Source of the DNA: Bacteroidia bacterium
GTDB taxonomy: Bacteria; Bacteroidota; Bacteroidia; M30B66
Assembly (NCBI GenBank): GCA_965279035.1
Contig: OZ257142.1
Coordinates: 3,488,001-3,552,000, forward strand
DNA length: 64,000 nt
Direction of reading: 5' to 3'
Made by a program: the position numbers and the translations under genes. Below are positions 14,276-49,884 of the stretch, piece by piece; position 1 is the first letter of the stretch, and the number at the start of each line of letters is the position of its first letter. The notes under the pieces were generated by a model, which worked only from the letters and a program-made list of their open reading frames with translations, was not told the origin of the DNA and ran no database searches.

Positions 14276-14402
14276 TAACGCTCCGCGTGCAACTCGAGGT
14301 TTGGGAATTGGTCAGCAGAATGCTTTAGATTAGACGAATATAGCAAGAAAATTGAAATGATTTAACCGAGCAGAATGCCCAAATCTTGAGTGCACGCTGT
14401 TA
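14276..14402. repeat. attC-like repeat 2 (family A)
   Basis: taac-gctcc-gcgtgcaactcgaggtttggg...cccaaatcttgagtgcacgc-t-gtta. Confidence 0.88.
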
Positions 14403-14413
14403 GTGGCTGGTGT

Positions 14414-15328
14414 TTAGTTATCAATAAATTTATTGCTCTTACTTATGTTACACTCTTCACATAAAGTTTGAAGATTATTGAGTTCTGTTAATCCTCCGAG
14501 TGAAAAAGGTGTTTTATGATCTATATGTAACTTAATATCATCTTTTGCAGAGCGACCACAAGCAATACATTTAAAATTATCTTTTTTAAATACTTTATAT
14601 CTCATGCTTAAAGGAATAGATCTCTTAGACTTATTCTCAATAACTTTTAATGGCAACTCATCAATATCATTATCATCCACTTCATTTATGGAATCAAACT
14701 TATTAAAGTTGGGTAATATTTCTAACTGATAACCTTTGTTTCCTTGAAAATGACCTTTAATTATTGAAACAACAATAAAATCATTTAAGAATTTTTCAGG
14801 TGAAGTATTAACCAATTCTTCTGATTGTGGATCAAAAATCCCTAAAATGATATCATTATTTTCTGTTATTTCAAATCCTAGATTTCTTAACATGTCACAA
14901 AATACAATTTGTTTTTGTCTACGATGAGCTTGGGCTCGTTTATCGTCGCCATCATATCGTTCTGCGAATTTTATTTTTTGTGTAAGGAAAATTACATTAT
15001 CACTTTCTTTCTCTGTTGTTAAATTTAAAGAAAATGTCATTCCTACAGATTTATTAGCTTTTGTATAGCAAAATAGTCTGTAATGATTTGATGTGTTTTC
15101 ATATAACTGAACTGAAACCTGCAATTCTCCTTGTAGAATAGGAAATGTGTATTCATGAATATTCCCTAATAATTGAAAATCCGATTGATTGTATTGAATT
15201 ACATCTTTAACACCTTGACTTCCTTGTAAAATAAATTTACCAATTGAAATTTGATCCGGTAATTCTGTTTTTGCCAATAATAAAGCGAACTTAATTGCAT
15301 CTAAATGATATTCTTCAAGATTGTCCAT
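14414..15328 (-). CDS. HNH endonuclease (C-terminal zinc-finger HNH), cassette copy 1
   Basis: CIACG...HIDH...GG...NLQTLCEECN; likely start MDNLEE at 15328. Confidence 0.85.
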   Translation of the reverse strand: MDNLEEYHLDAIKFALLLAKTELPDQISIGKFILQGSQGVKDVIQYNQSDFQLLGNIHEYTFPILQGELQVSVQLYENTSNHYRLFCYTKANKSVGMTFSLNLTTEKESDNVIFLTQKIKFAERYDGDDKRAQAHRRQKQIVFCDMLRNLGFEITENNDIILGIFDPQSEELVNTSPEKFLNDFIVVSIIKGHFQGNKGYQLEILPNFNKFDSINEVDDNDIDELPLKVIENKSKRSIPLSMRYKVFKKDNFKCIACGRSAKDDIKLHIDHKTPFSLGGLTELNNLQTLCEECNISKSNKFIDN

Positions 15329-15358
15329 AGTAAAATGATAGTTAAAAACACTTGCCAC

Positions 15359-15485
15359 TAACGCTCCGCGTGCAACTCGTGGTTTGGGAATTGGTTTGCA
15401 GAATGCTTTATTTTAGACGAATATAGCAAGAAAATTGAATTGCTTTAACCTAGCAAAATGCCCAAATCTTGAGTGCACGCTGTTA
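15359..15485. repeat. attC-like repeat 3 (family A)
   Basis: taac...gtta palindrome. Confidence 0.88.
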
Positions 15486-15928
15486 TAAGATGCGCGCCAA
15501 CTCAGCCTATGCGTGACTAGTAAAATTCAATCAAAATAAGCCATTCCAAAATCTTCATTACAAAGAAGCTTTCCCAAAACTCTGAGCAGATTTGATTGCA
15601 TTCTATGCTGAATATAGAATTTGAAAATCTCTAATGCCTTTTCGTCATGCACATTCTCGAGGCCATTTTTTATGGATCTCGCTCACCAAACTAGCAAAGG
15701 CATTTACATTCGATTTCATTCATATAAAATATCAAGCAAACAAAACCGAGATAAATATTTCTGCTGAATTTGAGTTCTGACCTTTTCAATGGCTTATTTT
15801 GAACTTGCAAAATCTAAGGCGATTTTTCCTGTTCGATCCCAACTAAAAACAGTTTTACAAATTGCATGAATAACTCATTTGTGCAAAATGTTGCCGACTT
15901 TGCGGAAGAGATTCGCGTTTCTTATAAC
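15482..15928. repeat. Non-coding cassette X, copy 1
   Basis: gttataagatgcgcg...cgcgtttcttataac; nested inverted repeats; no conserved ORF. Confidence 0.85.
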
Positions 15929-16049
15929 GGTCCGGCGATTTGCGAATGCGCGGAACAGTTTACCCAAATGTATCAAAACAAACGAAATGATTCAATCAGA
16001 AAAATGACTTAGAGAACGAAAATGCCCGCGTATCGCAGATTGCCTGTTA
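15925..16049. repeat. attC-like repeat 4 (family C)
   Basis: taac-ggtcc-ggcgatttgcg...cgcagattgcc-t-gtta. Confidence 0.88.
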
Positions 16050-16430
16050 TTTGATGCGCGCCAAGTCAGATTCAGTTCTAGCAAACTTTCCAAGCAAAAA
16101 AAGCGACTTGAATACACATTCTGAAATAAGGCCAAAAACCATTCTGCAAATATTCTGTGTTTGTCGCCATCAATTCTCTAGTTGATTTCATCAATCCATT
16201 AATTTGATTTTATCAGCAGTTCATTCCAGGCATATGGCGACAAACTTTTCAAAAACCTCTCAAATGGTTTTTGCCTATCCCTCAAATGCCGAGCTTTTTT
16301 TATCAAAAACGATTAGACATTCGTTTATTACTTTATTGTTTCCTGATAGCCGAAACTTCCTTTCGCCTTTAATGAATTATCTGACCACAATGCGAATGGC
16401 GAGTTTGGAAAATTTCGCGTTTCAAATAAC
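16046..16430. repeat. Non-coding cassette Y, copy 1
   Basis: gttatttgatgcgcg...cgcgtttcaaataac; internal IR gtttgtcgccat/atggcgacaaac. Confidence 0.85.
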
Positions 16431-16552
16431 GTTCCGCACACACCTGAAGAGCCAAACGAGGTGAACGAAATGCTTTAGATTAGACGAAAATAACAAGAAA
16501 AACGAACGTCTCAACCTCCCGAAATGCTTGGCTTTTCTGGTGTGTGCTGTTA
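16427..16552. repeat. attC-like repeat 5 (family B)
   Basis: taac...gtta palindrome. Confidence 0.88.
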
Positions 16553-16565
16553 GCCCTTGGCGGTT

Positions 16566-18059
16566 TTATTGTTTAATAAATTTCTTTCCTGAGCGATTGC
16601 CAGTTTTCAAATCTTGTATTTCAATCCAATATATCCCTTGACTTAAGCCATTAATTTCATTTGATAATACAGTTTTTTGATTTTGAATCTGACCTTTCCA
16701 GTGAATTCTTCCAAGCATATCTGAAATAATTGCTTCACAATGTGATGGAATATCTTGTTCAATTATTAAAGAAGATTCAACAGGATTTGGGTATAATTTA
16801 AATCGTATATTTAAATTATTATCGATTGATTGAATACCTGTGCTTAAACTATCACAAATACTTCCTGTTAAAGCACCTAGTCTAAAATTGGCATAATTGG
16901 GAGAAACTTCAATAAATCCATAATTGATTAGATCAAATACTTGAGGTGTAAATCCACAATTTAATGTTGGGTTATTTGGTTGATAGAGAACACTAAGTTT
17001 AGGCTCATATGGATTAGAGGTAAAATCAGTTGTTGGAGAAACGACCCACAAGTTATTGGGAGTTAAACATGGTGCTCCTTGCCCTTCAGCAATAACTGAA
17101 AAAATAGATGTTTCAAAATCGTATTGACATAATTCAATTGTCAAAAATGCATTCATATTAGATCTTCTAAAATACAACTTTGTGCCATCAGGACTTAAAC
17201 AGCAAGCATTAACAGCATCTTCATTAAAATATGAACTCAAATCATGTTCAATCGGATTTGATAATCCTCCAGTACATCGGTCAAAATTATATATATATGC
17301 TTTTCTAACTGAACCGATAATTACGTTTATAAATTTGCCTCCATCACTTGAAAATAGATTCCAACCACCACCCGGTTGGTGGATATGAGGTATAGGTGTA
17401 TAAATTGAGTTAAAATCAAAACCCGAAGGGTTTAATAAAGCTTGATAAAATTTATCCTGATAAATAGTTGATTTCATAATCCACCAATCTCTACCATTTG
17501 CGTGCCTGCATGCGGCAATAGTGCCTGCTGCGCTTGAGTCTAATTCAATAGGATGCTTTCTGATTATAGTCTCAATTTCTGAATCTGTTGTTTTGAATTC
17601 TGAATAATAAAAACTAGTATCAATTCCTAAAATAAATGGATCGTCAAGAATAGGTTTAGAATAGGAATTTAATAAACAATATTTTTGGGAAGAACCAGGA
17701 ACATTCAAAAAAAGTGAGTTTTTAAATCCAAGCGGCATTTCACTAAAATTTCCTGAATAAAAAGAATCAATTATTGCACCTGATGAGTCAAATAAATATT
17801 TGCCATTAAAAACAAGCAAAAGATTACCTAAAGAATCTGAAATTGAAGCAGAACCCTTATTAATTCTGTATTGAAAATTAGCACTTTCTATACTTTCCAG
17901 TCCAGTATTATTAAATTTAAGAACACCACTCCCGTATGGTTCTGGACAGCCATTTTCAGGAGAACATAACCCCCATACCCAGTTATCAGCTTGGCGTTGA
18001 GATAAAAGCTCTGAAAAAGAAGTTAAAGCAAAAACCAAAATAAGTAAATTAAATTTCAT
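16566..18059 (-). CDS. T9SS type A-sorted partner protein
   Basis: Signal peptide, QRQADN, RHANGRDWW, FDRCTG, YPNP CTD. Confidence 0.85.
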   Translation of the reverse strand: MKFNLLILVFALTSFSELLSQRQADNWVWGLCSPENGCPEPYGSGVLKFNNTGLESIESANFQYRINKGSASISDSLGNLLLVFNGKYLFDSSGAIIDSFYSGNFSEMPLGFKNSLFLNVPGSSQKYCLLNSYSKPILDDPFILGIDTSFYYSEFKTTDSEIETIIRKHPIELDSSAAGTIAACRHANGRDWWIMKSTIYQDKFYQALLNPSGFDFNSIYTPIPHIHQPGGGWNLFSSDGGKFINVIIGSVRKAYIYNFDRCTGGLSNPIEHDLSSYFNEDAVNACCLSPDGTKLYFRRSNMNAFLTIELCQYDFETSIFSVIAEGQGAPCLTPNNLWVVSPTTDFTSNPYEPKLSVLYQPNNPTLNCGFTPQVFDLINYGFIEVSPNYANFRLGALTGSICDSLSTGIQSIDNNLNIRFKLYPNPVESSLIIEQDIPSHCEAIISDMLGRIHWKGQIQNQKTVLSNEINGLSQGIYWIEIQDLKTGNRSGKKFIKQ

Positions 18060-18061
18060 GT

Positions 18062-21000
18062 TTATCGTTTAATTAATTTTTCATTCAAAACTTTCAATCC
18101 TGAGTTGTCAAATACCTGAATAAAGTATAATCCTTGAGCAACAGGATTTAAAATGTCAACTTCAAACTCACCAGAAATTCTGAGTGATTTATTATAAATT
18201 AATTGACCCATTGAATTCATAATTTTAATTATAAAATCATTAGATCCAGGCAATAAACTTCTAATAATAAATTTACCAGTTGTTGGATTAGGGTAAATTC
18301 GTAAAAACTGATTCAAGTTATTATTTGAATTTGACATATCAGTTTTAGATAAACGAAACATAACTCCTTGCTGTATACAAACACCATCATCGTTGTATAA
18401 AGCTGTATCATTTATGAGTGCATAAAGGCTTCGTGCTTTGAATACAGCAGAGCCTCCCAAAGCAGGGCACAAATGCGCAATTTCATATAATTCAGAAATT
18501 TGAAATTCATCGAATATTAGATTGTTTTGAGCTACTGTGTTTAAATATATCTTGTTTACTCGTCGCTCAAAATCCTCAAATTCAATATTAGTTACTACCC
18601 CATTATTGTATAAAAAGGAACTATCACGTGCAAATCCTTGTTTATCTAAAACATTGTTGTCTATTAACTCTAATTGTAATTTTAATTGATAAATGATAGT
18701 TACCAAAGCTGCTCGCTGGTTAATTGTTTGTTCATCATCATATAAGTTATCAGCGATAATAGTACTATCAAGAATATCTATTTGACTCATCACTAATTTC
18801 ATTTCCTGTAAATACCCTTTTTTAATTTGATCGGTAGTTTCAGAAGTTTCATTTATAACCTGAGTTTGATCCACATAAACGTAGTTCTGAGCAGGACTTT
18901 GCTGATATGCTTCAATGAATGAAACAAAATTACCAGTATCTGGTAGGATTAGCTCTTGGGAATTTAAAGCTTGGAAAATATCTTTACTAAGTGAGAATTT
19001 TACCGATTCTGTAAACGGGTCAAAAGCAAGAGAATCATACGCCAAAAGTCGAGCTAGGTTTTCCTGATCTTTAACAGAAGCTCCTGTAACGAAAGCAGGT
19101 GCAGAAATTATTGAGCAATATGGTTCTGAAGGAGAATTAAATGAGTTATCGCAATAGAAAAAATCCCCTTCACAAAAACCTGTAAATGGTTGAAAGGGAG
19201 GAAATATTGGATAGATTGTTAAATCTGATGGATTGTGAACTGTAAAGCTGTTTAAAGTCGTATTTGCAGAGTTAGTGCTTTGCCTTCTAGCAGGAGTAAT
19301 AATATAACCGCCAGTCCATTTATTTCCATTGTTTATCTGATTCCCTAAAATTCCAGTTGCTGTTATATCAACACCATATTGATGATTTACAATAGTGTTT
19401 AATTTAAAACTATCAGTTTGGCAATTACCATAAATCTTAAATCCATATCTCGAATTATTTACATAATTATTTTTAATGATGCCATTTCTAGAATTTGTAA
19501 GATTAATTCCAAATTGTCTAGTTGTTGTATTACCATTGATAAAATTACACGAAACCAATGATTTATTTGTATTAGACATGTAAATTCCACCACCTATATC
19601 CCAACTACTATTAAAGAATGTAAAGGGAAGAATTACAATTGTATCGGATTGAATTCTAATTCCCGTTGCTGAATTAACAGATATTCCAAAAGATGATGTT
19701 ATTTTATTTGCAAGAATCGTAGTATATCTCCCCATAAATTGATTTGAAACAAAGATCCCGTTGTTAAATGAAACCTGAGGCAATTGTGAAAAAAGAGGAA
19801 GAGATGTTATTGTATTATAACCAATAGTATCATTTAACATAAAATCACTTTGCATTAGACTAACACCCTGAATCTTTGAAGCAATTTTATTTTTCATTAT
19901 TTTAAAGCTCTTAGCTCTTAAATTCAAACCGCGAACTCCAACATTAACATTATCAAAAGAACAATTTCTCACATGTACATCACTTGCATTTACAAATACA
20001 CCCTTATTACAATTATTAAAATGCGTGTTATTTCCCCAATTATTTGGCTCTAATTGACTAAATCCTCCTACGAACAAAAATGAATTAGTGCTTGCATAAA
20101 TACCGTTTCCACTTACATTATTAAACTGAGAAATTGGACTTATTTGATTATCTAACCAATAACTACTCCCTTGGTAATTTACACCAAATGGCTGGATATT
20201 ATCAAATTTTGATTGATATACTTTTGCATAAGCATATTTATTTAAAATAACACCATTACATAAATTCTTAAATCTACTTCCAGAAGTTACATACAAATTA
20301 TAATAATTGGTAGCAACAATTCCGGCTAAACTATAACCCAAAGGTAAAGGAGATTGATTAGGAAATGTTTGCAATAATTGCCCTCCAATAAAAGAACAAC
20401 TTTTCAAAGCAAGTGGATGCTCGCCTAATTCGTCTCCAGATTTGATAGCAACAAAATTATTTTCGAAAATCGTATTATCTACATTAGAATATGCATTCCC
20501 AAAACGTCTTAGCAAAATGCCATAGTGTGCATCTTTAATATTACAATTACTAATTTTCAATTTTCCCAAATTATTAATACCATTCCACATTTGCTCACAT
20601 CCTTTTAAATTACAAGAGTCCAATTTTAAAGTTCCAGTTACTTTAATTTCTTTCCCCCCAGCAATAGTGATATCACAATTATTAAACTCAAAAATATTAT
20701 CAACAGTTAAACTATGATTCAACTGAATGCATTTATCAGATAATATACTTAACCCCAATGATGTAGCAAGTTGAGAGGTTGTTAAAACATTTGCTGGAAT
20801 AATATATAATGGCGTACCTAAACTATCACAAATTTGACAATTACAAAGTGTATTAGAACTGATAGTTATCGCAGTATCTATACTAACACACCCTGAATCG
20901 TTTGTGAATGAATAAGTCAACATCAATGTATCTGAAATATAACTTGACGGGTCTACTACAAAGCTATTATTTGATAAACCATTAATTGAGAATATACCTC

Positions 21001-24000
21001 CTACTGGTGATACAGAAACTAAATAGTTCATACTTGCACAAATGCTATCACCTAATTGTAAAATATTAGCAGAAGAAATCTCATTAATTGAAACATCAAT
21101 ACTCGCCGTATCAATACACCCACTCAAATGCGAAACTATAACAGTATAGCTAGTATCATTATTTGGAGAATCGTAAGCAATTGAGTTATTAAGGCTATCA
21201 GCGGTCGCGTTCATGCTCCATTGGTATGTATGAGCATTTGTTACTAACGTATCTGTTGCAATAAATGGGTTGCTATTGTTAAAACCAAGATTATTAGTAG
21301 CATTTGAATCAACAGCGTGAAGTGAAATTGGACTACCACCACAAATAGAACTTTGACTGAGAATAATATGAGCTTGCACTCCATGATTTTGAATTTCTAA
21401 TGCATTGAAAACATATATGAGACCACCATTAGTGGTTACTGTTGCAGAATAAAGCCCTTGCTCAACATTTATATTAAGAATTGTGTCTTGAATTGTTAAA
21501 TCGGAAACAAGTAAAATGCTATCCAATTCAATTTTATATAATTGAATGTGCTTATCACTAGAATCAGTAAAATGTAAACTAATAATGCCTAGAGAATCTG
21601 CATTACAAGGATGCTTTAGAGATACTGTCGCTGCAGATTGCAAACAACAATCAGGAGAACCTGCCATAGCAGATATTTGAGACTGAGTTGAAGGCGATGC
21701 GTTATTTATGAAACTTTGTGAAAGGTAATTTGATGTATACAAAGCAGAATCATTACATTCTGTGTAACCAGTAAAGGTTGCTTCTAATATGCGATATAAA
21801 AAGTTACTTTGGAAAACAGAAGGTGATAAATTACATGTTGATTGATCTAGTTTAAATCTTAATGCAAATTGGAGATGAGCTCCGGCGTGAAGTGTATCTA
21901 CAGATGGAAATGCTAATACTAAAACAGTTGTCGGAGGCGTTGGAAAATCTTCAAATTGAAAAGAGTAATTAGGATCAATGGTATCATTGAGATAATTACC
22001 ACTTTGGCTTGACAAAGAATCTCCAGCTAAAAAATACTCAAACGTACTTGAACCAGTATTTAAAATTAAGCCAGAAGGAATGTTAATTAGTAATTTCCCA
22101 TTTACAATATTTGGGCGATTAATAGGATTATCAATATCAATTAACCATGTTAAGTCACAGCCTGAAGAGTCATTATTAATAATTAACTGCGAGCTTCTGT
22201 TTACATAAGCAGTATCACGATGAAAATTAACAATTGAAGTCCCCCCAAAACATTGAGGAGCTCTATTAACATTCTCTTTAAAAACTTCGAATGAATCAGT
22301 TATACAAAAGCATCCATAGTTTAAAGAAAGTCTATAATTATCAATGCCACAAACAACCGGAATAGCTAATTGTGTTGACATACTGTCTATTGGAAAACCA
22401 TTTTGAAAAAAATGATAAACAACTCCAAGTGAATCAATAACACTTAATGAATCATTCAAAAATGGTATTGTCGGGGAAAAAGGATTTATTGTTACAGGTA
22501 AATTAGGTGCGTTCGGCAGTAAACTTGAAACACCGTAACTCAACCAACAATTACCTATTTGTAATGAATCAGGCGATTTAATATGAAGATCAAAATGGAC
22601 TGAATCCGATTCAGCAATTCCTTGTATTTGATTAGGCATAGGTAATCCTAGAAACAATCCATTAAATACATTAGGGGAAGTATATATCCAATATGGTGTT
22701 TTAACTTTTTGAATATCAAATTGACTATGATTTGATACATCAACCGAATCATAAAATGAATAATCAACAAGCCGTAAAGAATCAACTACATATAAATAAG
22801 TTGGTATAAAATCTGAATCAATATAGTTTAAAGGGGATATGTAGGCAAAATCATAAAACGGGAGTTTGTGTGGTATTGTATCATTCCCGCTTGAACAAAA
22901 TTTGTTTGCTTTTATATAAATGTCCTGAAAGCCAGGTTTCTCAAGAGGATGCAAAAATGTTTGATTAGGATACCAAAGTTTTCTAAGTGTATCTGAATAA
23001 ACTAATGTATCTGTTCCATTTTCAATTGCAAAACCTTCAATAAAATTGCTTGAATATGCAGTATCTGCATATCCAATAAATGGTCGAAACTCATATGGAA
23101 AATCATCCATAAAGGTTCCTAAACCTCCAGAAAGCCGAATCTTAAAATGTGCTTCTGATATACAATGAGATGTAGAATCGTTTTGTGTAATGATTGAAAT
23201 CGACTTGTTGGGTACTAAAACTTTTAACTGAGTTCCCCAAGGATCGCAGCTATAAGTTGTCAATTGCGAATCCATATTAGTAGAACAGATAAATTGCCCT
23301 CTAAATAATACCGGATTTATTGGAGTTGTTACATCAGGTAGAACCCAAAATTCTGCATTAAGTCTGAGTTTATATGAATGAGTATTGATTGAATTGAGTT
23401 GAGGGAGTGCTGATAAGTTATCAATACCTAATTCAAAACTATAAAGTGTATCTCCACTCATTCCAAATACACTTGAATTATTGGGATTAATATTTTGAAC
23501 AATCAATGGAACTGAAAAAGAATCAGCAGCAATTGAATCTATAAAATAAAGTTCCGAATTCTTTAATTTTAACAATGGTTGATCACCAATTATTGTATGA
23601 GCTAATTCAAATGAAATATTTTGAAATTCAAATGTTTCACTACTACCATTGACTGTTAAATCAGGATAAGAGACCAAAGTCCCAATTGAAGATAATTTAA
23701 CAATATCAAATGGATATAGCTTGGTTAATTCATTACTAATTATAGATTCTCTTAGTATGCTTGGTAATGAAGGATTTGAAATATCAATTAATGAATCAAT
23801 ATGCAATGTTAATTCATCCCTTGATAATATAGGAGTATTAGGAAAATCAGTAGTATCACGAAAACCAAAGGTTGATCTTTCCAAATTTACACTCTTTGTT
23901 CCCATTGGTACAAATCCATCACATTCTCCCGGACAATGTGCAACTACATTCAAAGTATTGCATGCAAGTGTTTTATAACATTCTTCACACGAAGCGCAAA

Positions 24001-27127: not shown

Positions 27128-27134
27128 TGCTATT

Positions 27135-40148: not shown

Positions 40149-40594
40149 TAAGATGCGCGCCAACTCAGCCAATGCGTGACTAGCAATGTTCAATCAAAAT
40201 AAGCCATTTCAAAATCTTCATCACAAAGAAGCTTTCCCAAAACTCTGATCAGATTTGTTTGCATTCTAAGCTGAATATAGAATTTGAAAATCTCTAATGC
40301 CTTTTCTTCATACTCATTCTCGAGGCCATTTTTTATGGATCTCGCTCACCAAAATAGCAAAGGCATTTTCATTCGATTTCATTCTAGTAAAATATCAAGC
40401 AAACAAAGCCGTGAAAAATATTTCTGCTGAATTTGAGTTCTGCGCTTTTCAATGGCTTATTTTGAACTTGTAAAATCTAAGGCGATTTTTTACTATTCGA
40501 TTCCAGCTAAAAATAGCTTTTGCAAATTGTCTAGAAAATCTATTTGTGCAAAATGATAGCCGACTTTGCGGAAGAGATTCGCGTTTCTTATAAC
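40145..40594. repeat. Non-coding cassette X, copy 5
   Basis: Nearly identical to copy 3. Confidence 0.85.
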
Positions 40595-40716
40595 GTTCCG
40601 CACACACCTGAAGAGCCAAATGAGGTAAACGGAATGCTTTAGAATAGACGAATATAACAAGAAAAAAGGATGACTCAAACTCCCGAAATGCTTGGCTTTG
40701 CTGGTGTGTGCTGTTA
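40591..40716. repeat. attC-like repeat 16 (family B)
   Basis: taac...gtta palindrome. Confidence 0.88.
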
Positions 40717-40754
40717 CCTGCTGGGGCTTGTTCTTCAATATTCAGCTCTTTACC

Positions 40755-41630
40755 CTATTTATTATCTTTCGATATTCTTTTCAACCAATCCTTTGCTCCT
40801 GTTTTTGATTCCCAAATTCTCTTTGATTGGCTCACGTAATAATCTGCTTCTTCCTCACTTCCCGATGTGTATCCGTCCGAATCGAAAATAGAATCCCTTC
40901 TTGAATTCAGTTTCTTTGCAACATACTTGTTTTGTTTAATTGCTTTTCTTAGCAATGTCTCAGAATTCTTTGTTTCTCCTTCATTTATAAATGCAAACAA
41001 GGCTCTATTAAAAAGAGCAAAAGTCATAAAATCATTCTTAAATTGTTTGTCATACTTTGTGAACTTAGACTTGTCTTCAACTTCAATCAAATACAAAAGC
41101 AGTTGATCTCGAATTCCTTGATTGTCATTCGGATTTAATTCAATCATTTCCTCAAAGACCTCTATTGATTCTTGAATTTTGTTCAATTCATACAAACAGT
41201 TTGCGTGTAAATGCATGCAGCGCATAAACGGTCTTGTCTCATGCAACAACCAAAAGTGTCCTTTATTCTCTTTGAAATACTTGGCACCGAATTTTTTCCT
41301 TCCTATGGAAATTCCTTTCTCATAAAATGCATCTGAAATCGGAGGGAAATCATTTATATTACCAAGAAATTCATACGCTTCAATACAGTCAGAATCCAAT
41401 TCAAGCGCCTCCATTACTTTTTCAAATCCTATTCTTGGATCAAAATCATATGCACTTAATACCAAGTCAATGGCTTTTTCCTCATTTGTCAAAGTCTCCT
41501 CTGGAAAAGATGGCAATTCAGTTCCAACCAAACTATTCATGAAATCTCTCAATTCCTTTTCCGTTTTGAAATCCTTTGTTGATAGAAGTCTTTGAAAGTC
41601 TATCATTGCTTTTTCATGTTGTTTACCCAT
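40755..41630 (-). CDS. TPR-like helical protein
   Basis: W...ETRPFMR and LNPNDNQGIR motifs; helical repeats. Confidence 0.7.
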   Translation of the reverse strand: MGKQHEKAMIDFQRLLSTKDFKTEKELRDFMNSLVGTELPSFPEETLTNEEKAIDLVLSAYDFDPRIGFEKVMEALELDSDCIEAYEFLGNINDFPPISDAFYEKGISIGRKKFGAKYFKENKGHFWLLHETRPFMRCMHLHANCLYELNKIQESIEVFEEMIELNPNDNQGIRDQLLLYLIEVEDKSKFTKYDKQFKNDFMTFALFNRALFAFINEGETKNSETLLRKAIKQNKYVAKKLNSRRDSIFDSDGYTSGSEEEADYYVSQSKRIWESKTGAKDWLKRISKDNK

Positions 41631-41660
41631 AATCTGATGTCATTTTTTTGCCCTTGCAGG

Positions 41661-41785
41661 TAACGGTCCGGCGATTTGCAGATGCGCGGAACAGTTTACT
41701 CAAATGTATCAAAACAAACGAAATGCTTCAATCAGAAGAATGATTTAGAGAACGAAAATGCCCGCGTATCGCAAATTGCCTGTTA
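41661..41785. repeat. attC-like repeat 17 (family C)
   Basis: Copy of repeat 10. Confidence 0.88.
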
Positions 41786-42231
41786 TAAGATGCGCGCCAA
41801 CTCAGCAAATGCGTGACTAGCAATGTTCAATCAAAATAAGCCATTCCAAAATCTTCATTACAAAGAAGCTTTCCCAAAACTCAGAGCAGTTTTGTTTGCA
41901 TTCTAAGCTGAATATAGAATTTGAAACTCTATAATGCCTTTCCTTCATTCTCATTCTCGAGGCCATTTTTTATGGATCTCGCTTACCAAAATAGCAAAGG
42001 CATTTTCATCCGATTACATTCTAGAAAAATATCAAGCAAATAAAACCGAGATAAATATTTCTGCTGAATTTGAGTTCTGCCCTTTTCAATGGCTTATTTT
42101 GAACTTACAAAATCTAAGGCGATTTTTTACTATTCGATTCCAGCTAAAAATAGCTTTTGCAAATTGTCTAGAACATTAATTTGTGCAAAATGACAGCCGA
42201 CATTGCGGAAGAGATTCGCGTTTCTTATAAC
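41782..42231. repeat. Non-coding cassette X, copy 6
   Basis: Homologous to copy 1. Confidence 0.85.
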
Positions 42232-42354
42232 GGTCCGCGTGCAACTCGAGGTTTGGGAATTGGTTAGCAGAATGCTTTAATTTAGACGAATATAGCAAGA
42301 AAATTAAAATGATTTAACTAAGCACAATGCCCAAATCTTGAGTGCACGCTGTTA
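42228..42354. repeat. attC-like repeat 18 (family A)
   Basis: taac...gtta palindrome. Confidence 0.88.
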
Positions 42355-42735
42355 TTTGATGCGCGCCAAGTCCGATTCATTTTCCCTCAAGTTTCCAAGC
42401 AAAAAAAGCGACTTGAATACACATTCTGAAATAAGGCCAAAAACCATTCTGCAAATATTCTGTGTTTGTCGCTATCAATTCTCTAGTTGATTTCATCAAT
42501 CCATTAATTTGATTTTATCAGCAGTTCATTCCAGGCATATGGCGACAAACTTTTCAAAAACCTCTCAAATGGTTTTTGCCTTTCCCTCAAATGCCGAGCT
42601 TTTTTTATCAAGTGCGATTAGACATTCGTTTATTACTTTATTGTTTCCTGATAGCCGAAACTTCCTTTCGCCTTTAATGATTAATCTGACAACAATGCGA
42701 ATGGCGAGTTTGGAAAATTTCGCGTTTCAAATAAC
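42351..42735. repeat. Non-coding cassette Y, copy 4
   Basis: Homologous to copy 1. Confidence 0.85.
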
Positions 42736-42857
42736 GTTCCGCACACACCTGAAGAGCCAAACGAGGTGAACGAAATGCTTTAGATTAGACGAATATAACA
42801 AGAAAAACGGATGCTTCAAACTCCCGAAATGCTTGGCTTTGCTGGTGTGTGCTGTTA
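42732..42857. repeat. attC-like repeat 19 (family B)
   Basis: taac...gtta palindrome. Confidence 0.88.
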
Positions 42858-42876
42858 TATGCAGCTGAAATTTATT

Positions 42877-43146
42877 TTACGGAAACTTCTTGTAGATATC
42901 TTTTCTATGCAAAATCGTAATCAATCTAATTTCATTTGAACTAATTAGTTCTAACCCGATTCTATAGTCACCGATTTTTATTCTGTAGTATACAGTAAAA
43001 CCGATAAGCTTTTTGGTGTTTGATATTTGCTCGAGAACTTCAGCTTCTTCTGCTTTTTGAATAACTGATTCAATTCTTTTTAGGACACTTTTATCCTTGA
43101 TTTTATCAAGAGCTTTAATGAATGATTTGTCAAATCTGACTATCAT
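42877..43146 (-). CDS. RelE/ParE family toxin
   Basis: F.K.L.K...YRIKIGDYRIG...HRKDIY; basic, 89 aa. Confidence 0.88.
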   Translation of the reverse strand: MIVRFDKSFIKALDKIKDKSVLKRIESVIQKAEEAEVLEQISNTKKLIGFTVYYRIKIGDYRIGLELISSNEIRLITILHRKDIYKKFP

Positions 43147-43340
43147 TTCTTCTTGAGTTTTTGAAAAACTTCTTCTCTAGAAGCATCTATTCCAGTTTTC
43201 TCAGAATCGATGATTGTTCCCAAAAGAAAGTCTTCATATTGATTATCTTTCAGACTAACAACATTAGCACCTAGTCTCTTTGCTAACTCTTTGAGAATCT
43301 TATTACTCTTGTCGTCTGCTTTAATTATAATGGCGCTCAT
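43143..43340 (-). CDS. Putative antitoxin
   Basis: 65 aa, ATGA overlap with the toxin. Confidence 0.78.
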   Translation of the reverse strand: MSAIIIKADDKSNKILKELAKRLGANVVSLKDNQYEDFLLGTIIDSEKTGIDASREEVFQKLKKK

Positions 43341-43359
43341 AGCGAATGTTTCTTTACTT

Positions 43360-43367
43360 CAAAAGTA
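43360..43367 (-). promoter_or_regulatory. Bacteroidota -7 promoter box of the TA cassette
   Basis: TACTTTTG (TAnnTTTG) about 20 nt upstream of the antitoxin ATG. Confidence 0.6.
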
Positions 43368-43459
43368 ATCAATATTCTTGAAGTTTTCTAAATGTAATTC
43401 TTGTGTCTCAATTATTCTAGTGTAATGCTGATTAGCTAACGGATGGCTTCAGTTGCATA

Positions 43460-43585
43460 TAACGGTTTCGGGCTTGGCGAAGGTGGCGATTTTCACCACA
43501 AATGTTGATGCGGAGAACCAAACTTTGATTAACCACAAATGTGTCTGCGGAGCACTGAACCGCCACTTTTGCCAAACCCGTGTTA
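43460..43585. repeat. attC-like repeat 20 (family E)
   Basis: taac-ggttt-cgggcttggcgaaggtggcg...cgccacttttgccaaacccg-t-gtta. Confidence 0.88.
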
Positions 43586-43619
43586 CCAGCCGTTTTTCTA
43601 TCTGTCAAACTCGTTGAAG

Positions 43620-44339
43620 TCATTTTTTTGTTATGAATTTCATAAAGGTTGAAGTCAGGTCAATGATAAATTCTATTTCCTTTTCGTTTACATTGTCATC
43701 GTGCTTGGCATATTTATTTTGATATTTCCCGTAATAGTCCAAAAGGGTATTAAACATATTTGTCGTTTCAGGACTTATACCTTTAGCTTGCTGAAATTGT
43801 CCTACGTCTGCAATTTGTTTTTCTAAAGGCTTATCATTGTTAAGAACCTCCTTTAAAAGTAACTCTAATGAAAGTCTCAAATCGTCAATTAAATTTCTTT
43901 GGTAAACATTCTTATTCAACTTGTCTAAGGAAGAGTTATATAATTCAAAAGCCTTTTTATAAGTAGAAAGCCAATGTTGAGTTTCCTTTACAAGTTCAGT
44001 TGTAAGAATATGTTGTCCGCTTGGAATATACTCAGGGTATTGCGAATACAATTTGTTTTTTAAATCCTTTACACTGTCAAGATGTTGAAGCCTATCAATA
44101 GTCTCGGAAATAATTTCAAATTGTTGGTCAGCGTTAAAACGTTTCAAATTTTCAAGAAATGCTGTTCTTTTATTAGGAACATCAACAAAAGGAGGCTTAT
44201 GGAATGGAATATCTACATTGTAATCCAAACTTTTGGCTGAGAAATACTTGCCAATTTCAGTTGAAGTAAGTCCCGTATTGGTGTCTGCCAATATATCCGA
44301 TGCGTATGTTAGGAAAACATTATTTATTGGTTTCTTCAT
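43620..44339 (-). CDS. Hypothetical protein, possibly abortive-infection (AbiJ/Abi_C-like)
   Basis: Helical; C-terminal YQNKYAKH resembles a degenerate HEPN motif; family call is tentative. Confidence 0.5.
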   Translation of the reverse strand: MKKPINNVFLTYASDILADTNTGLTSTEIGKYFSAKSLDYNVDIPFHKPPFVDVPNKRTAFLENLKRFNADQQFEIISETIDRLQHLDSVKDLKNKLYSQYPEYIPSGQHILTTELVKETQHWLSTYKKAFELYNSSLDKLNKNVYQRNLIDDLRLSLELLLKEVLNNDKPLEKQIADVGQFQQAKGISPETTNMFNTLLDYYGKYQNKYAKHDDNVNEKEIEFIIDLTSTFMKFITKK

Positions 44340-45840
44340 TTTCAGTTTGCTCGTTTTGTTTTACTTCTTCGTTGATTGCGTTATCAACTCTAGCTTCATT
44401 TTCAACTTCTTCTTTTGCACCAACTCTTTTGAAAGTTATGCTACTCTTATCTTTAATTGATACGAGTATTAAATCATCTTGATTGATTTTTTCGATTTTG
44501 TAAAACAGTTCTTTATTTGGATAGGAAAGATTGACGGTATTTCCTTTATCTGTAAATTTTACAACACCTTTTGAAACTTTATCATTAATAATTTCAATGA
44601 AGGTGTGTTTGCCCAAAAAGGAATGTTCAAAAAAGAATATTTGCTCTTGGTATGAAGTATTTTTCCAACGTTTCCCGAACAAGTTCAAATTTCTGAAATA
44701 CTTTGGTTTTGAAAATAAACCAATTAATAATAATAGTAAGATTGTCCCAATTGATACGCCTAAATAGGTGAAAAATTCTTTGTTTATTGCAGTGTCATTT
44801 TCTGTGATTTCATAGTGTTTCCCATAACTTGAATAATATACTGCCCAATCTTCCGTATTTATGTTTGCACTGTGGTCGTCAGAACTGTTCCAAGAAGGGG
44901 CGAAAATTCCAGAAGAAGAATATTGCTTTGGACTAGTGTTGTCCATATAGAAATATTCGTTTCTAATGTCGGAGAAGTTGGAAATGTCAACATATTTTCC
45001 AGGCGTGTATGCTCCTGATGATTTCTTATCGTCTTTTGTAAAATACTCAAAAGCTTCTGTGTAGCATTGTCGAACTGGCAACCTGTAATTACTTGAATAA
45101 TAACCTCCACCAACTTTCATTTTTTCACCCCACCCCATATCCATATATTCAGGTTCTACATATCTTCCAGATGATTTTTTATAACCCATATCACCTGATG
45201 AAAAAGTTTCTACATCATAACCGTCATCATTTTGTTTTGTGAGTTGCTTTATTGTGAAACCACCACTGGATGCTTTATAAATAGTGTAAAGCTTTTCTCG
45301 TTCCCACCAATCTTGGAAAAGGCTTGAATATCCGTCATCGTTTTTATTTTTTGATTTTGAATATCCTGTTTCTTCAAGCTCACCTTGTGTCAAGGAATGA
45401 ATACCGTCAAGAACAACAGTTTTGCCGTCAAGAATATTGTCAACCTTTGAGTAAATCTCTTTTTTCAATTTCTGCTTTTTGTTATTTGAAATTAAATATG
45501 CGGAGAGAGCAGCGGCTCCAATTAACAAAAAAGCTACTGAATATATTTTGAATGAAGCCCAAAATTTCACATTGCTATCTTCTACAAGAATTTTCTTTTC
45601 TTCTTTGGCTTCATCTTGAACTTGAATTGTTGAATTTGTCGAGTTGTCAATAATTGGAGGTGGAGGCGGTGTTTTTTTGAGAAGTCCTTTAAGTTCTTCT
45701 ACTTCCTTAACTGGTTTCCAATTTTCAAAACCGTCAGCCCAAACTAAGGTATCGGGTTTCAAACCAACTGTCCTTAGTTGGTCAATGCTAAAAGGTCCTT
45801 TTTGTTCCTTTTCGTCTAAGTAATAAAATTCTTTTTCCAT
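44320..45840 (-). CDS. GYF_2 (DUF4339) domain membrane protein
   Basis: N-terminal QKGPFS...L...TLVW..G...W, proline linker, two TM segments. Confidence 0.8.
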   Translation of the reverse strand: MEKEFYYLDEKEQKGPFSIDQLRTVGLKPDTLVWADGFENWKPVKEVEELKGLLKKTPPPPPIIDNSTNSTIQVQDEAKEEKKILVEDSNVKFWASFKIYSVAFLLIGAAALSAYLISNNKKQKLKKEIYSKVDNILDGKTVVLDGIHSLTQGELEETGYSKSKNKNDDGYSSLFQDWWEREKLYTIYKASSGGFTIKQLTKQNDDGYDVETFSSGDMGYKKSSGRYVEPEYMDMGWGEKMKVGGGYYSSNYRLPVRQCYTEAFEYFTKDDKKSSGAYTPGKYVDISNFSDIRNEYFYMDNTSPKQYSSSGIFAPSWNSSDDHSANINTEDWAVYYSSYGKHYEITENDTAINKEFFTYLGVSIGTILLLLLIGLFSKPKYFRNLNLFGKRWKNTSYQEQIFFFEHSFLGKHTFIEIINDKVSKGVVKFTDKGNTVNLSYPNKELFYKIEKINQDDLILVSIKDKSSITFKRVGAKEEVENEARVDNAINEEVKQNEQTENEETNK

Positions 45841-45880
45841 ACTGTCAATTTTATTCGTGTCTGTCTTTTAAAATGGCTGG

Positions 45881-46007
45881 TAACGCTCCGCGTGCAACTC
45901 GAGGTTTGGGAATTGGTTTGCAGAATGCTTTAGTTTAGACGAATATAGCAAGAAAATTAAAATGATTTAACTAAGCACAATGCCCAAATCTTGAGTGCAC
46001 GCTGTTA
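45881..46007. repeat. attC-like repeat 21 (family A)
   Basis: taac...gtta palindrome. Confidence 0.88.
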
Positions 46008-46450
46008 TAAGATGCGCGCCAACTCAGCCAATGCGTGAAAAGCAAAGTTCAATCAAAATAAGCCATTTCAAAATCTTCATCACAAAGAAGCATTCCCAAA
46101 ACGCTGAGCAGATTTGTTTGCATTCTAAGCTGAATATAGAATTTGAAAATCTCTAATGCCTTTTCTTTATACTCATTCTCGAGGCCATTTTTTATGGATC
46201 TCGCTCACCAAAATAGCAAAGGCATTTTCATTCGATTTCATTCTAGTAAAATATCAAGCAAACAAAGCCGTGAAAAATATTTCTGCTGATTTTGACTTCT
46301 GCCCTATTCTTGGCTTATTTTGAACTTGCAAAATCTAAGGCGATTTTTTCTATTCGATTCCAGTTAAAATAGCTTTTCCAAATTGACTGAAAAATTCATT
46401 TGTGCAAAATGATAGCCGACTTTGCGGAAGAGATTCGCGTTTCTTATAAC
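46004..46450. repeat. Non-coding cassette X, copy 7
   Basis: Homologous to copy 1. Confidence 0.85.
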
Positions 46451-46571
46451 GGTCCGGCGATTTGCAGATGCGCGGAACAGTTTACTCAAATGTATCAAAA
46501 CAAACGAAATGTTGAAAACAGAAGAATGACTTAGAGAACGAAAATGCCCGCGTATCGCAAATTGCCTGTTA
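46447..46571. repeat. attC-like repeat 22 (family C)
   Basis: taac...gtta palindrome. Confidence 0.88.
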
Positions 46572-47036
46572 GCGGATAGTAAGGTCAAGCCCGCAAATGG
46601 TTTCCGCAAATTTCCATGAAATAAAAGCCTTTTATCATTCTGCCTTTCATACAAAAGAAGCGATTACGATTTCTCAAATTCAGTTTCTCATCACTTTTTC
46701 ATTTCAAATTCTTCGATTCAAGTTTCGTCAATTTTGCATTTGAAAATCTGTTAAAACTGAATTCTGTTTTAGTTTGTTCAATCAAATTCTTTAATTGATT
46801 TCGATTGCAAATATCTTCAGCGATGTTTCATTTGATTTCAAGAACAAACTAAAACTCCTGGAATTTCATTTCGCTGAATTTTGTTTCCGATTCTGTTTCA
46901 TGGCTTTTATTGAAAACTCGATATAGGCATTTTGATTCTCGATTTCTCTTGATTATCAAATGCCGCGAAAGTCTGAGAAGTTTCATTCTCTCAAATGCCG
47001 ATGCCGGCTGTGCGTGCAAACCTTATTTCCGCTAAC
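46568..47036. repeat. Non-coding cassette Z, copy 2 (diverged)
   Basis: gttagcgga...tccgctaac; same internal stems as 37147-37692. Confidence 0.8.
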
Positions 47037-48301
47037 CTTTAGACTTGCAGTCAAAGATTTTAGCTGATAAATTTACCATAAATAAATGTAGTTAACCGAA
47101 AGCAGGGCGACCTATGCGCTAACAAGGATAATAGGCCTATGGAACGATATAGTGCCCTACTTTCTGGTTATTTAAGCCTCAGATAGATATTCGGGATTCA
47201 GGCCCATTATAAAGGTTTTGAGGTACAAATAACCATTGGTTAATCCGTTTTGCTAATTATAAAATTATGAATTCAAACCAGAACAACCAAAAACATTTTG
47301 TAGGAACAGATGTTTCAAAAGAAACACTTGATGTAACGATCTTTTTCAACTCCTCAATGCATTTTCATCAGCAATTTTCAAATGACAGCAAGGGCTTTAA
47401 GCAATTGCTGAAATGGCTAGAAACCTATCCTGAATTCAGTTTTGAAAATACTTTATTCTGCATGGAACATACAGGAATTTACACTCGTCAGTTTGTTGAA
47501 TTCCTCCTTTCGAAAGAAGCAAAGGTATGGATGGAGTCGGCACTGCATTTAAAGCGTTCTATGGGCATGACAAGGGGCAAAAGTGATAAGATCGATTCAC
47601 TGCGAATTGCACGCTATGCAATGACTCATCAGGACCAAGCCAGGCTCGTAAATCTTTCCAATAAAACATTGTTGCTTATCAAAGACCTTATGAGTGCAAG
47701 AGAGCGGAGTAAAAAGGCCTACCAGTCCATAAAAGTCTCCATTGATGAAATGCAAAGAGTCGATGCAGCAACAGCAAAAGAGCTCTTGAGGATTAATAAA
47801 CCAGCCCTTTCTGGATTATTGAAAAGCAAGATGGCGTTGGAAAAACGGATGATGGAATTAATAGCGATGGATCCTGAACTGAACGAGCTATTTGAGCTGG
47901 TTACTTCTGTCAAAGGTGTGGGTAATGTATTGGCAACCGAACTGATTGTTTATACACATGCATTTAAAAGAATGGATGAAGCCAAACAACTGGCCTGCTA
48001 TTGCGGAGTCGCTCCTTTTTCTCATACTTCCGGCACGAGTGTGCATGGAAGAAATGGAACTTCAAACTTTGCTAACATGGGACTTAAATCAACTTTACAC
48101 TTGGCTGCACTTTCTTCAATTCGTTACGTACCTGAGCTTAAAACATATTATCAGAGGAAAGTAGCTGAGGGAAAATCCAAAATGAGCGTAATTAATGCCG
48201 TGCGGAATAAACTGTTGCAACGTGTCTTAGCAGTGGTAAAAAGAGGAACGCCTTACCAAGAAAATTATCAAGTAAATTAATTTGGAAAACTCATAGATAT
48301 C
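47037..48301 (+). mobile_element. IS110-family element, copy 3
   Basis: Same 1265 bp element at TAAC|GTTCC. Confidence 0.93.
47267..48280 (+). CDS. IS110 recombinase
   Basis: Identical to 5468-6481. Confidence 0.95.
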   Translation: MNSNQNNQKHFVGTDVSKETLDVTIFFNSSMHFHQQFSNDSKGFKQLLKWLETYPEFSFENTLFCMEHTGIYTRQFVEFLLSKEAKVWMESALHLKRSMGMTRGKSDKIDSLRIARYAMTHQDQARLVNLSNKTLLLIKDLMSARERSKKAYQSIKVSIDEMQRVDAATAKELLRINKPALSGLLKSKMALEKRMMELIAMDPELNELFELVTSVKGVGNVLATELIVYTHAFKRMDEAKQLACYCGVAPFSHTSGTSVHGRNGTSNFANMGLKSTLHLAALSSIRYVPELKTYYQRKVAEGKSKMSVINAVRNKLLQRVLAVVKRGTPYQENYQVN

Positions 48302-48423
48302 GTTCCGCACACACTTGAAGTGCCAAATGAAATGAGCAGAATGCTTTAGATTAAACGAAAGTAACAAAGAAAACGGATGATTCAATACAGCGGAAAGCTT
48401 GGCATTTCTAGTGTGTGCTGTTA
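48301..48423. repeat. attC-like repeat 23 (family B variant), IS110-interrupted
   Basis: Its TAAC is at 47033-47036. Confidence 0.85.
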
Positions 48424-48434
48424 GTGGCTGGTGT

Positions 48435-49349
48435 TTAGTTATCAATAAATTTATTGCTCTTACTTATGTTACACTCTTCACATAAAGTTTGAAGATTATT
48501 GAGTTCTGTTAATCCTCCGAGTGAAAAAGGTGTTTTATGATCTATATGTAACTTAATATCATCTTTTGCAGAGCGACCACAAGCAATACATTTAAAATTA
48601 TCTTTTTTAAATACTTTATATCTCATGCTTAAAGGAATAGATCTCTTAGACTTATTCTCAATAACTTTTAATGGCAACTCATCAATATCATTATCATCCA
48701 CTTCATTTATGGAATCAAACTTATTAAAGTTGGGTAATATTTCTAACTGATAACCTTTGTTTCCTTGAAAATGACCTTTAATTATTGAAACAACAATAAA
48801 ATCATTTAAGAATTTTTCAGGTGAAGTATTAACCAATTCTTCTGATTGTGGATCAAAAATCCCTAAAATGATATCATTATTTTCTGTTATTTCAAATCCT
48901 AGATTTCTTAACATGTCACAAAATACAATTTGTTTTTGTCTACGATGAGCTTGGGCTCGTTTATCGTCGCCATCATATCGTTCTGCGAATTTTATTTTTT
49001 GTGTAAGGAAAATTACATTATCACTTTCTTTCTCTGTTGTTAAATTTAAAGAAAATGTCATTCCTACAGATTTATTAGCTTTTGTATAGCAAAATAGTCT
49101 GTAATGATTTGATGTGTTTTCATATAACTGAACTGAAACCTGCAATTCTCCTTGTAGAATAGGAAATGTGTATTCATGAATATTCCCTAATAATTGAAAA
49201 TCCGATTGATTGTATTGAATTACATCTTTAACACCTTGACTTCCTTGTAAAATAAATTTACCAATTGAAATTTGATCCGGTAATTCTGTTTTTGCCAATA
49301 ATAAAGCGAACTTAATTGCATCTAAATGATATTCTTCAAGATTGTCCAT
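48435..49349 (-). CDS. HNH endonuclease, cassette copy 2
   Basis: Protein identical to copy 1. Confidence 0.85.
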   Translation of the reverse strand: MDNLEEYHLDAIKFALLLAKTELPDQISIGKFILQGSQGVKDVIQYNQSDFQLLGNIHEYTFPILQGELQVSVQLYENTSNHYRLFCYTKANKSVGMTFSLNLTTEKESDNVIFLTQKIKFAERYDGDDKRAQAHRRQKQIVFCDMLRNLGFEITENNDIILGIFDPQSEELVNTSPEKFLNDFIVVSIIKGHFQGNKGYQLEILPNFNKFDSINEVDDNDIDELPLKVIENKSKRSIPLSMRYKVFKKDNFKCIACGRSAKDDIKLHIDHKTPFSLGGLTELNNLQTLCEECNISKSNKFIDN

Positions 49350-49379
49350 AGTAAAATGATAGTTAAAAACACTTGCCAC

Positions 49380-49503
49380 TAACGCTTCGGCGATTTACGA
49401 TGCGCGGAACAGTTTACCCAAATGTATCAAAACAAACGAAATGATTCAAACAGAAAAATGACTTAGAGAACGAAAATGCCCGCGTATCGCAGATTGCCTG
49501 TTA
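49380..49503. repeat. attC-like repeat 24 (C'/C chimera)
   Basis: Left arm of family C', loop and right arm of family C. Confidence 0.85.
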
Positions 49504-49884
49504 TTTGATGCGCGCCAAGTCCGATTCAGTTCTAGCAAAGATTCCAAGCAAAAAAAGCGATTTGAATACACATTCTGAAATAAGCCAAAACCCAATCATC
49601 AAATTTCCTGTGTTTGTCGCCTTCAATTCTCTGGTTGATTTCATCAATCCATTAATTTGATTTTATCAGCAGTTCATTCCAGGCATATGGCGACAAACTT
49701 TTCAAAAACCTCTCAAATGGTTTTTGCCTTTCAATCAAATGCCGAGCTTTTTTTTATCAAGAGCGATTAGACATTCGTTTATTACTTTATTTATTCCTGA
49801 TAGCCGAAACTTCCTTTCGCCTTTTATGATTTATCTGAGAACAATGCGAATGGCGAGTTTGGAAAATTTCGCGTTTCAAATAAC
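49500..49884. repeat. Non-coding cassette Y, copy 5
   Basis: Homologous to copy 1. Confidence 0.85.

Follow-up and report, generated by a model that had tools for sequence, protein, structure and literature searches.

An integron cassette is usually defined as a gene together with its own attC site, and the locus described here raises the question of whether a cassette can exchange that site for another one. It lies in a 64,000-nt stretch of the genome of a Bacteroidia bacterium (GCA_965279035.1, contig OZ257142.1, positions 3,488,001 to 3,552,000; referred to below as the window and numbered from its first letter), which has a G+C content of 35%, encodes many proteins with type IX secretion system (T9SS) tails and contains an array of 32 attC-like hairpin repeats separating cassette bodies. 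Its G+C content and T9SS tails place it in Bacteroidota. This array breaks the usual rule repeatedly and recently, in one case on a body with zero differences between its copies. Replacement of the repeat beside a body is real, is rare across the family of related arrays and is apparently frequent in this window.

The repeats, 124-127 nt in length, span positions 6499-61313 and are all located on the + strand. With a covariance model trained on 34 repeats (from the window and from other genomes, and so partly on the scored repeats themselves) they scored 78.9-126.8 bits, the next match in the window reaching 19.2 bits, and an independent structure finder detected 32 sites on the + strand, none on the - strand and none in three shuffles. 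Each site is composed, on the + strand, of AAC, five unpaired nucleotides, a stem of approximately 20 bp with its loop, one nucleotide and GTT. AACG and TGTT are invariant across the 34 aligned repeats, the T preceding GTT is nearly invariant (264 of 275 repeats), and covariation was found in 17 of 19 stem pairs, as in attC hairpins, where the AAC/GTT core and the structure are conserved over the sequence. The repeat had no match in Rfam.

The repeats fall into families that are 57-71% alike in pairwise comparison. Family A comprises repeats 2 (14276-14402), 3 (15359-15485), 7 (27777-27903), 8 (28345-28471), 18 (42228-42354, with a C-type spacer base) and 21 (45881-46007); family B comprises repeats 1 (6499-6624), 5 (16427-16552), 6 (26095-26220), 13 (38954-39079), 16 (40591-40716) and 19 (42732-42857), with a B' variant (about 80% identical to B) at repeat 23 (48298-48423). 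Family C is represented by repeats 4 (15925-16049) and 14 (39522-39646), both Y-type, and by repeats 10 (34577-34701), 15 (40024-40148), 17 (41661-41785) and 22 (46447-46571), and C' by repeats 11 (35144-35269), 25 (49881-50006) and 26 (51764-51889). Repeats 9 (28849-28974), 12 (37027-37150) and 20 (43460-43585) are of types D, E and F, the last being widespread, while repeats 27-32 (starts 53646, 54654, 56234, 57374, 58363 and 61188), which with five single-copy bodies occupy 53646-61313, belong to the widespread types G, F and D2. Repeats 10, 15 and 17 are identical, as are the A repeats 2, 7 and 8, all six neighbours of which differ.

After removal of IS110 elements, the 9-nt body ends (GTT plus six nucleotides) are perfectly complementary in 30 of the 31 window bodies; body 1 (6621-14279, with IS4-like, IS3-like and two T9SS genes on the + strand) matches at 8 of 9 positions. 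Complementarity is lost at positions 10-11 and resumes up to position 15, in the window as well as in 132 outside bodies, each body thus being closed by a 15-bp imperfect inverted repeat; these 132, out of 220 outside bodies in incompletely mapped arrays, are those with fully complementary 9-nt ends. Such ends correspond to the R'/R''-type ends of integron cassettes. Judged by an end-polarity signature, an A at position 11 of the right end, 29 of 29 window bodies and 142 of 148 elsewhere (the other six being uninformative) have a uniform orientation, and no inverted body was found among the 29 or the 148. A shufflon or other inversion system was rejected, all repeats being direct and inverted bodies absent. 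With the cassette genes mostly on the - strand, the bottom strand is the + strand, and for each body the cognate repeat is the left one, downstream of its gene; in outside bodies with a clear open reading frame (ORF), 113 of 119 genes are co-oriented.

The sequence-only reading of this stretch had proposed that repeats and bodies are shuffled independently, and the identical bodies on different repeats from which it started are confirmed, as are all the flanks that it listed. The two copies of an HNH cassette body (14399-15362 and 48420-49383, both on the - strand) show no differences over 964 nt and are flanked by A/A (repeats 2 and 3) and B'/C'C (repeats 23 and 24), respectively. Repeat 24 (49380-49503) joins a C' left arm to a right arm of the repeat 4 type and is the sole chimera among the 32. 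The gene-less body X is flanked, in window order, by A/C (X3, 15482-15928), A/A (X7, 27900-28348), C/C' (X10, 34698-35147), B/C (X13, 39076-39525), C/B (X15, 40145-40594), C/A (X17, 41782-42231) and A/C (X21, 46004-46450); X10 and X15 are identical in sequence and both have C on the left, while X13, with four site differences from them, has B. For the gene-less body Y the flanks are C/B (Y4, 16046-16430), A/D (Y8, 28468-28852), C/C (Y14, 39643-40027), A/B (Y18, 42351-42735) and C'C/C' (Y24, 49500-49884), and the homologous gene-less bodies Z12 (37147-37692) and Z22 (46568-47036) lie between E/B and C/B'. The three IS91-like Y2 bodies (35266-37030, C'/E; 50003-51767, C'/C'; 51886-53649, C'/G; all on the - strand) keep C' on the left, downstream of the gene.

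A pattern of this kind could be produced by misassembly of a repeat-rich region, and contigs from the Logan collection bear on this. Contigs of four runs were aligned to window positions 38940-51780; runs X19 and X20 represent two samples of one study, which is possibly the source of the window. Both runs contain the HNH body as one 970-nt piece (48417-49386), with a depth of 1480 versus 787 for single-copy neighbours in run X19 and 894 versus 496 in run X20. Its two edges coincide exactly with the points at which A and B' cease to have GCTGTTA in common (left) and A and C' cease to have TAACGCT in common (right), and the joint from A to the HNH body is present at single-copy depth (650 and 401 in runs X19 and X20). 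Because the two-copy piece branches at both ends, two different neighbours adjoin the HNH body on the left and two on the right, however the flanks are phased. None of the listed contigs extends across the stretch, and the contigs are short: left flanks are not phased with right flanks, the X junctions are not confirmed one by one and rare circles are not visible. The other joints and loose ends, however, match window junctions elsewhere or other cassettes, and several repeat-body-repeat units occur within single contigs, namely the tetratricopeptide repeat (TPR) body between B and C (40713-41664, - strand; both junctions, runs X19 and X20), the ParE toxin body between B and F (42854-43463, - strand) and C-Z-IS110. 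Since the HNH piece has two-copy depth and forks where predicted at either end in both samples, misassembly is the least probable of the explanations considered here. The adjacent GYF-domain body (43582-45884, F/A, - strand) retains its left F repeat, with three differences in the body, in two freshwater metagenome runs (X1 and X2) where F is abundant.

Is the cognate repeat then free to change, or does it travel with its body? Comparing all copies of X, Y, HNH, Z and Y2, left flanks are of the same family in 13 of 36 pairs where permutation gives 6.1 (P≈0.01); for right flanks the figure is 6 of 36, the chance level (P 0.57). The proposal of independent shuffling therefore stands in so far as exchange occurs at both junctions, but full independence does not, the left repeat being partly linked to its body. 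The left repeat was replaced on four of the five multi-copy bodies (X, Y, HNH and Z) and kept on Y2 only. At least five changes are required by state count and about seven on small trees of the X and Y copies, trees that mosaicism makes unreliable; in these, X7 (on A) is sister to X17 (on C; support 0.93) and Y4 (on C) to Y18 (on A; support 0.91).

Outside the window linkage is the rule: eight of ten homologous cassette families keep the left repeat, one has swapped it and one is ambiguous (G167/G157/G187). Kept repeats include those of duplicates in G157 (left repeat 99% identical, right 60%), G123 (99%) and G079 (100%), of a pair shared by G359 and G157 (95% versus 56%) and, in all 8 of the copies scored, of a gene-less G079 cassette, as well as three pairs that retain the arms with a changed loop. 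This G079 cassette, 358 nt long and unrelated to X, Y and Z, is present in at least 11 copies (L071-L073, L094) with an unusually short repeat of 79-83 nt. The clean swap concerns a body of 875 nt that G020 and G387 share at 93% identity; its left repeats differ between the two, and each has 97-98% identity to repeats that accompany unrelated bodies. Pairs were dropped from this tally where a 1.2-kb (G123) or 1.7-kb (G167) insertion lies at the repeat end, where homology covers just 100-230 nt at one end, for a G387 contig-end pair resembling an inserted element and for one false repeat call. An apparent adjacent swap near ATGCCT-ended bodies (G157, G387) was set aside, the same repeat type also occurring on unrelated bodies.

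The positions of the junctions indicate where the extra crossover lies. At their ends, A and B share just GCTGTTA and A and C just CTGTTA; the crossovers are confined to these six to seven bases, and every replaced repeat terminates in the arm of its own family. A and B also share 24 identical internal nucleotides, yet no A/B chimera was found. Because crossovers fall in the terminal bases and the 24-nt match is unused, the swap points favour a site-specific exchange, putatively at the G|TT end, over homologous recombination. Host homologous recombination, gene conversion or microhomology deletion among the X, Y and repeat copies, leaving integrase behaviour unchanged, could account for the mosaic X copies and the chimeric repeat 24, which uphold the earlier remark that homologous exchange within repeats also occurs. 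It could likewise account for the mixing of stem-arm and loop types across genomes (12 pairs with loops at least 85% alike and arms less than 65%), which suggests exchange inside the hairpin. A crossover inside a body, however, cannot supply a new cognate repeat, nor can homologous exchange create a new repeat-body pair; the new pairs form in the terminal bases, and X and Y diverge directly after GTTAT with no X starting like a Y. As the explanation of the replacements, host recombination is unlikely.

Candidate integrases for such an exchange are found next to related arrays. Among 401 Bacteroidota genomes sampled, 58 contain a match to the F repeat, and the covariance model found sites in 24 of 25 genomes picked from earlier matches and, among the relatives of G157, in 7 of 41. 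In nine related arrays the end lies immediately 3' of a co-directional tyrosine recombinase gene; at all nine the integrase stop codon is followed by a body-type end in AAC, and four of the nine share YAAC-N4-TTATAT. Three neighbouring integrases score 209-211 bits against TIGR02249, in two pieces and below the cut-off of 265. One aligns without gaps to XerA, approximately 21 of its residues spanning 63 residues of the IntI4 structure 2A3V (about 42 fewer), so that the I2 region is missing. An N-terminal extension is present in the integrases adjoining arrays, in one of them (locus L023:4315-5937) with a match to Pfam HARP, and might take over from I2 in recognising branched DNA; for the G157 integrase, structure modelling from the single sequence reached a pLDDT of 48, too low for use. 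The array works like an integron but is not classed as a canonical one, because it departs from the definition in three respects: the spacers are 5 and 1 nt long instead of 5-6 unpaired nucleotides per arm with canonical extrahelical bases; no IntI with an I2 insert is encoded in the window, and the integrases of neighbouring arrays score below the cut-off; and four of the five multi-copy bodies in the window do not keep their own downstream attC, whereas bodies in eight of the ten outside families do.

The account we favour, which has in our judgement about an even chance of being right, combines default cassette movement at AA|C with an additional exchange at G|TT, most likely a top-strand excision; the anatomy of the array, the replacement of repeats, the interval of the crossovers and the linkage by default are demonstrated, and the enzyme, strand and cause are what we infer. 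By default, a tyrosine recombinase would cut AA|C on the bottom strand, repeat and body moving as one cassette. The extra step in this lineage would be a site-specific exchange at G|TT that replaces the repeat of a body: two hairpins folded from the top strand may recombine at their AA|C (G|TT on the + strand), deleting a body and its right repeat and leaving the next body with a foreign left repeat. Loss of X-C from [A-X][A-X][C-Y], for example, would give A-X-A-Y with identical A copies, as seen at repeats 7-8. Deletions alone would suffice to yield every discordant pair, and homologous recombination among X, Y and C copies could then mix the products. Strand choice may be relaxed owing to an integrase family lacking I2 and to A, B and C repeats without a stem mismatch: a true mismatch at stem position 4-5 is present in 137 of 168 well-registered outside repeats (of 275) and in 0 of 23 A/B/C/C' repeats. 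A second AAC lies on the 3' stem arm in 105 of these 168, and the GCT that it faces is present in 137.

IntI1 recombines attC top strands 1,000-10,000-fold more rarely than bottom strands, depending on unpaired features (PMC5027507), and top-strand exchange is a known side reaction that could move the GTT-end junction. In 25 of 30 sedentary arrays the bottom strand is on the leading template (PMC5371416), and the top strand is therefore exposed on the lagging template in most of them. Both B-type replacements in the window (X13 and HNH copy 2) are at IS110-interrupted repeats that have lost their AAC, two cases that fit top-strand exchange.

Several observations weigh against this account. In 31 of the 32 window repeats the more stable fold is that of the bottom strand, and a top-strand site would have to react with just one nucleotide after AAC. 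Top-strand circles re-inserted at attI should be inverted; because no inverted body was found, the model requires mostly deletions. The link to stem mismatches is weakened by a mismatch-free repeat kept at 95% between G359 and G157, by the swapped G020 and G387 repeats, both of which have a stem mismatch, and by the mismatch-free C', which stays on Y2 in three of three copies. The difference in retention between the window (one of five) and outside families is weak (Fisher P 0.03-0.09 on an earlier tally). GC skew is flat, so that the orientation of the array relative to replication cannot be read from it, and within the 64 kb there is neither an integrase gene nor an attI site, the array running past the right end, where relatives have their integrase.

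The absence of inversions (0 of 177 bodies) is what a second mechanism would predict, in which an integrase lacking I2 completes both strand exchanges between two folded bottom-strand hairpins, so that stem-loops are swapped and bodies stay in place. Changes in place are indeed suggested by the unit X-repeat-Y, present four times with C, A, C and A as the middle repeat, and by C17-X-A18-Y, the exact reciprocal of A3-X-C4-Y. I2 and the extrahelical bases block the second cut in IntI (PMC4792948, PMC3458562); I2 is absent from the related integrases, and the near-invariant T before GTT could supply homology. The form of this double exchange with its natural second cut at the stem-arm AAC failed, however: it would leave four nucleotides of the old arm on the body, and swapped repeats all end in the arm of their own family. 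A cut directly before TG would swap just 2 nt. A 2-nt swap is atypical for tyrosine recombinases. Because the four old bases are not seen, double exchange ranks below top-strand exchange and appears possible but rather doubtful.

Two further explanations draw on what else resides at the locus. Existing bodies could be re-capped with the A, B and C repeats of the host by the process that makes cassettes, as for a new gene. Across genomes, 94 of 98 repeat pairs that are at least 92% alike sit on unrelated bodies, and the native types A/B/C/C' account for 23 of repeats 1-26 and for none of repeats 27-32 (P=9e-5), a pattern that repeated G|TT exchange would also give; no candidate enzyme for re-capping was found, and we regard this as very unlikely. 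Alternatively, the exchanges could be caused by resident transposases, the IS110 bridge recombinase or the IS91-like Y2 enzyme, the latter belonging to a family of single-strand transposases. IS110 elements occur on the + strand at 5238-6502 (transposase 5468-6481; inserted at AAC|GTTCC of repeat 1, whose AAC end is split off), 37693-38957 (repeat 13) and 47037-48301 (repeat 23), that is, in three of seven B repeats counting B', which include the two carrying the B-type replacements, and their depth suggests about 9-10 copies in the genome. The transposase matches NF033542 at 157 bits (cut-off 140), and, as is characteristic of bridge-RNA elements, the inserted copies combine a DEDD transposase with a non-coding RNA that has guide-like matches to target and donor. 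In the upstream region (5238-5467, also at 37693 and 47037), 6-mer motifs at 5319, 5342, 5386 and 5411 resemble guides and match both halves of the target, the start of the B repeats, and both halves of the circle junction, their assignment to loops being putative. All three copies share the target AAC|GTTCC. The insertion point of IS110 is the AAC end, and the GTT end is not matched by the guide-like motifs, while the A and C replacements have no insertion sequence nearby; transposases as the cause are highly improbable.

Circles that contain a body without a repeat, raised earlier as an alternative to one-repeat circles, were rejected: because the ends of a body are inverted relative to each other, recombination between them would flip it, and no flipped body was found. 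Excised circles should instead carry one repeat, left or right.

The reason why unrelated genes in sedentary arrays carry near-identical, host-specific attC sites bears on the problem of how cassettes arise, for which PMC4792948 and PMC5371416 state that there is no reliable model. Site replacement, as found in this array, would be a partial answer and would undermine the use of attC type as a marker of cassette origin. Should the hairpin be a free module, a tentative idea in which an integrase lacking I2 would resolve both ends of a synapse between two folded sites, the host may step by step equip foreign cassettes with repeats of its own (native types occupy 23 of the 26 positions on the left and 0 of the 6 on the right), which would provide a route to attC homogenisation and to new pairings of cassette and site that requires no de novo synthesis of cassettes. 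Provided that the integrase is situated on the right, where relatives have it, native repeats would be carried by the older cassettes and foreign repeats by the newer ones, as expected from replacement over time; this polarity of the array is presumed from the relatives. The A, B and C hairpins versus F, with the integrase family lacking I2, offer defined substrates for asking what enforces strand choice.

The closest likeness of the array is to sedentary chromosomal integrons such as those with Vibrio VCR sites. Shared features are co-oriented AAC/GTT hairpins, mostly co-oriented genes, a default in which body and downstream site move together, cargo that is gene-less or serves as toxin or in defence, and host-specific repeat families. 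Sedentary integrons differ in their 5-6-nt spacer per arm (PMC5027507). The array family described here has a stem mismatch in place of G/T extrahelical bases, 15-bp inverted repeats at the body ends and integrases without I2 that are read in the cassette direction and followed by attI-like DNA after the stop codon, and in the window the cognate site is often replaced. A group of clustered attC sites with no integrase (CALIN) in Polaribacter phage P12002L (Qi et al. 2023, PMC9892861) is similar in being an attC-like cluster from Bacteroidota with no integrase in view; the likeness concerns this setting, and the accessible part of that paper does not mention repeat replacement. IntI1 top-strand events have been discussed as causing inversions (PMC5027507), and second-strand exchange at attI x attI, which could also move the GTT-end junction, was demonstrated just for double-stranded attI (PMC4792948). 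The accessible text of these two papers reports no natural replacement of a cassette attC, and nothing on it was found in that of 10.1101/2024.07.02.601686, PMC8618304, PMC13616975 and PMC8946536. Literature searches, which covered few subscription papers and no supplements, returned no description of the array family or of attC replacement; IntegronFinder 2.0 reports few integrons in Bacteroidetes (PMC9024848).

In sequence collections, the X/Y pattern gave no matches in metagenome contigs and three chance matches in genome contigs, and the A-X-A-Y block gave just two matches of 30-38 nt in the 401 genomes. The B and C patterns and the HNH protein had no match in viral contigs, the F repeat had none in plasmids, and a loose gapped repeat pattern remained at control level, and hence uninformative, in the 401 genomes. 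A search with the A pattern recovered a single contig of 2 kb (L004), on which A and B repeats accompany other bodies.

Gene-less bodies account for 14 of the 31 window cassettes. Like the gene-less promoter cassettes of Vibrionaceae (bioRxiv 10.1101/2023.11.21.568050), X, Y and Z (385-547 nt) have no conserved long ORF and are often located upstream of gene cassettes; a consensus Bacteroidota -7 box was present in just 1 of 12 copies scanned, and a promoter role is putative. The Y2 cassette, two of whose three copies are in tandem, encodes an 89-aa ORF upstream of the IS91-family transposase and has 9-nt complementary ends.

IS1111/IS110 elements are known to target attC sites. The window elements resemble these in using one fixed position in a repeat family, here the B repeats at AAC|GTTCC. 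Other insertion elements were found after the right repeat end in G123 (L037-L038; five copies) and before the left repeat end in G353 (L019) and G167 (L023-L024).

The remaining cargo of the window includes a 9.5-kb body (16549-26098, B/B, - strand) with two T9SS-tailed proteins, one of 2626 aa, and perfect ends, which is very large for a cassette; a methyltransferase body (26217-27780, B/A, - strand); and a 5.6-kb multi-gene body (28971-34580, D/C, - strand). Defence cargo is represented by a C5 methyltransferase and HNH pair at 58505-61084 and by a strong match to the PADLOC candidate PDC-S32 at 43620-44339. Elsewhere, bodies in L040, L042 and L050 share 90-170 nt at both ends and have different cargo, which suggests exchange of the gene between existing ends as an origin of new cassettes. 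At the left of the window, two inverted IS3-like copies (1448-2976 and 9726-11254) flank IS110 and repeat 1, and a T9SS gene pair at 2970-5237 duplicates 12018-14279 at 85%, its genes being antisense to the array.

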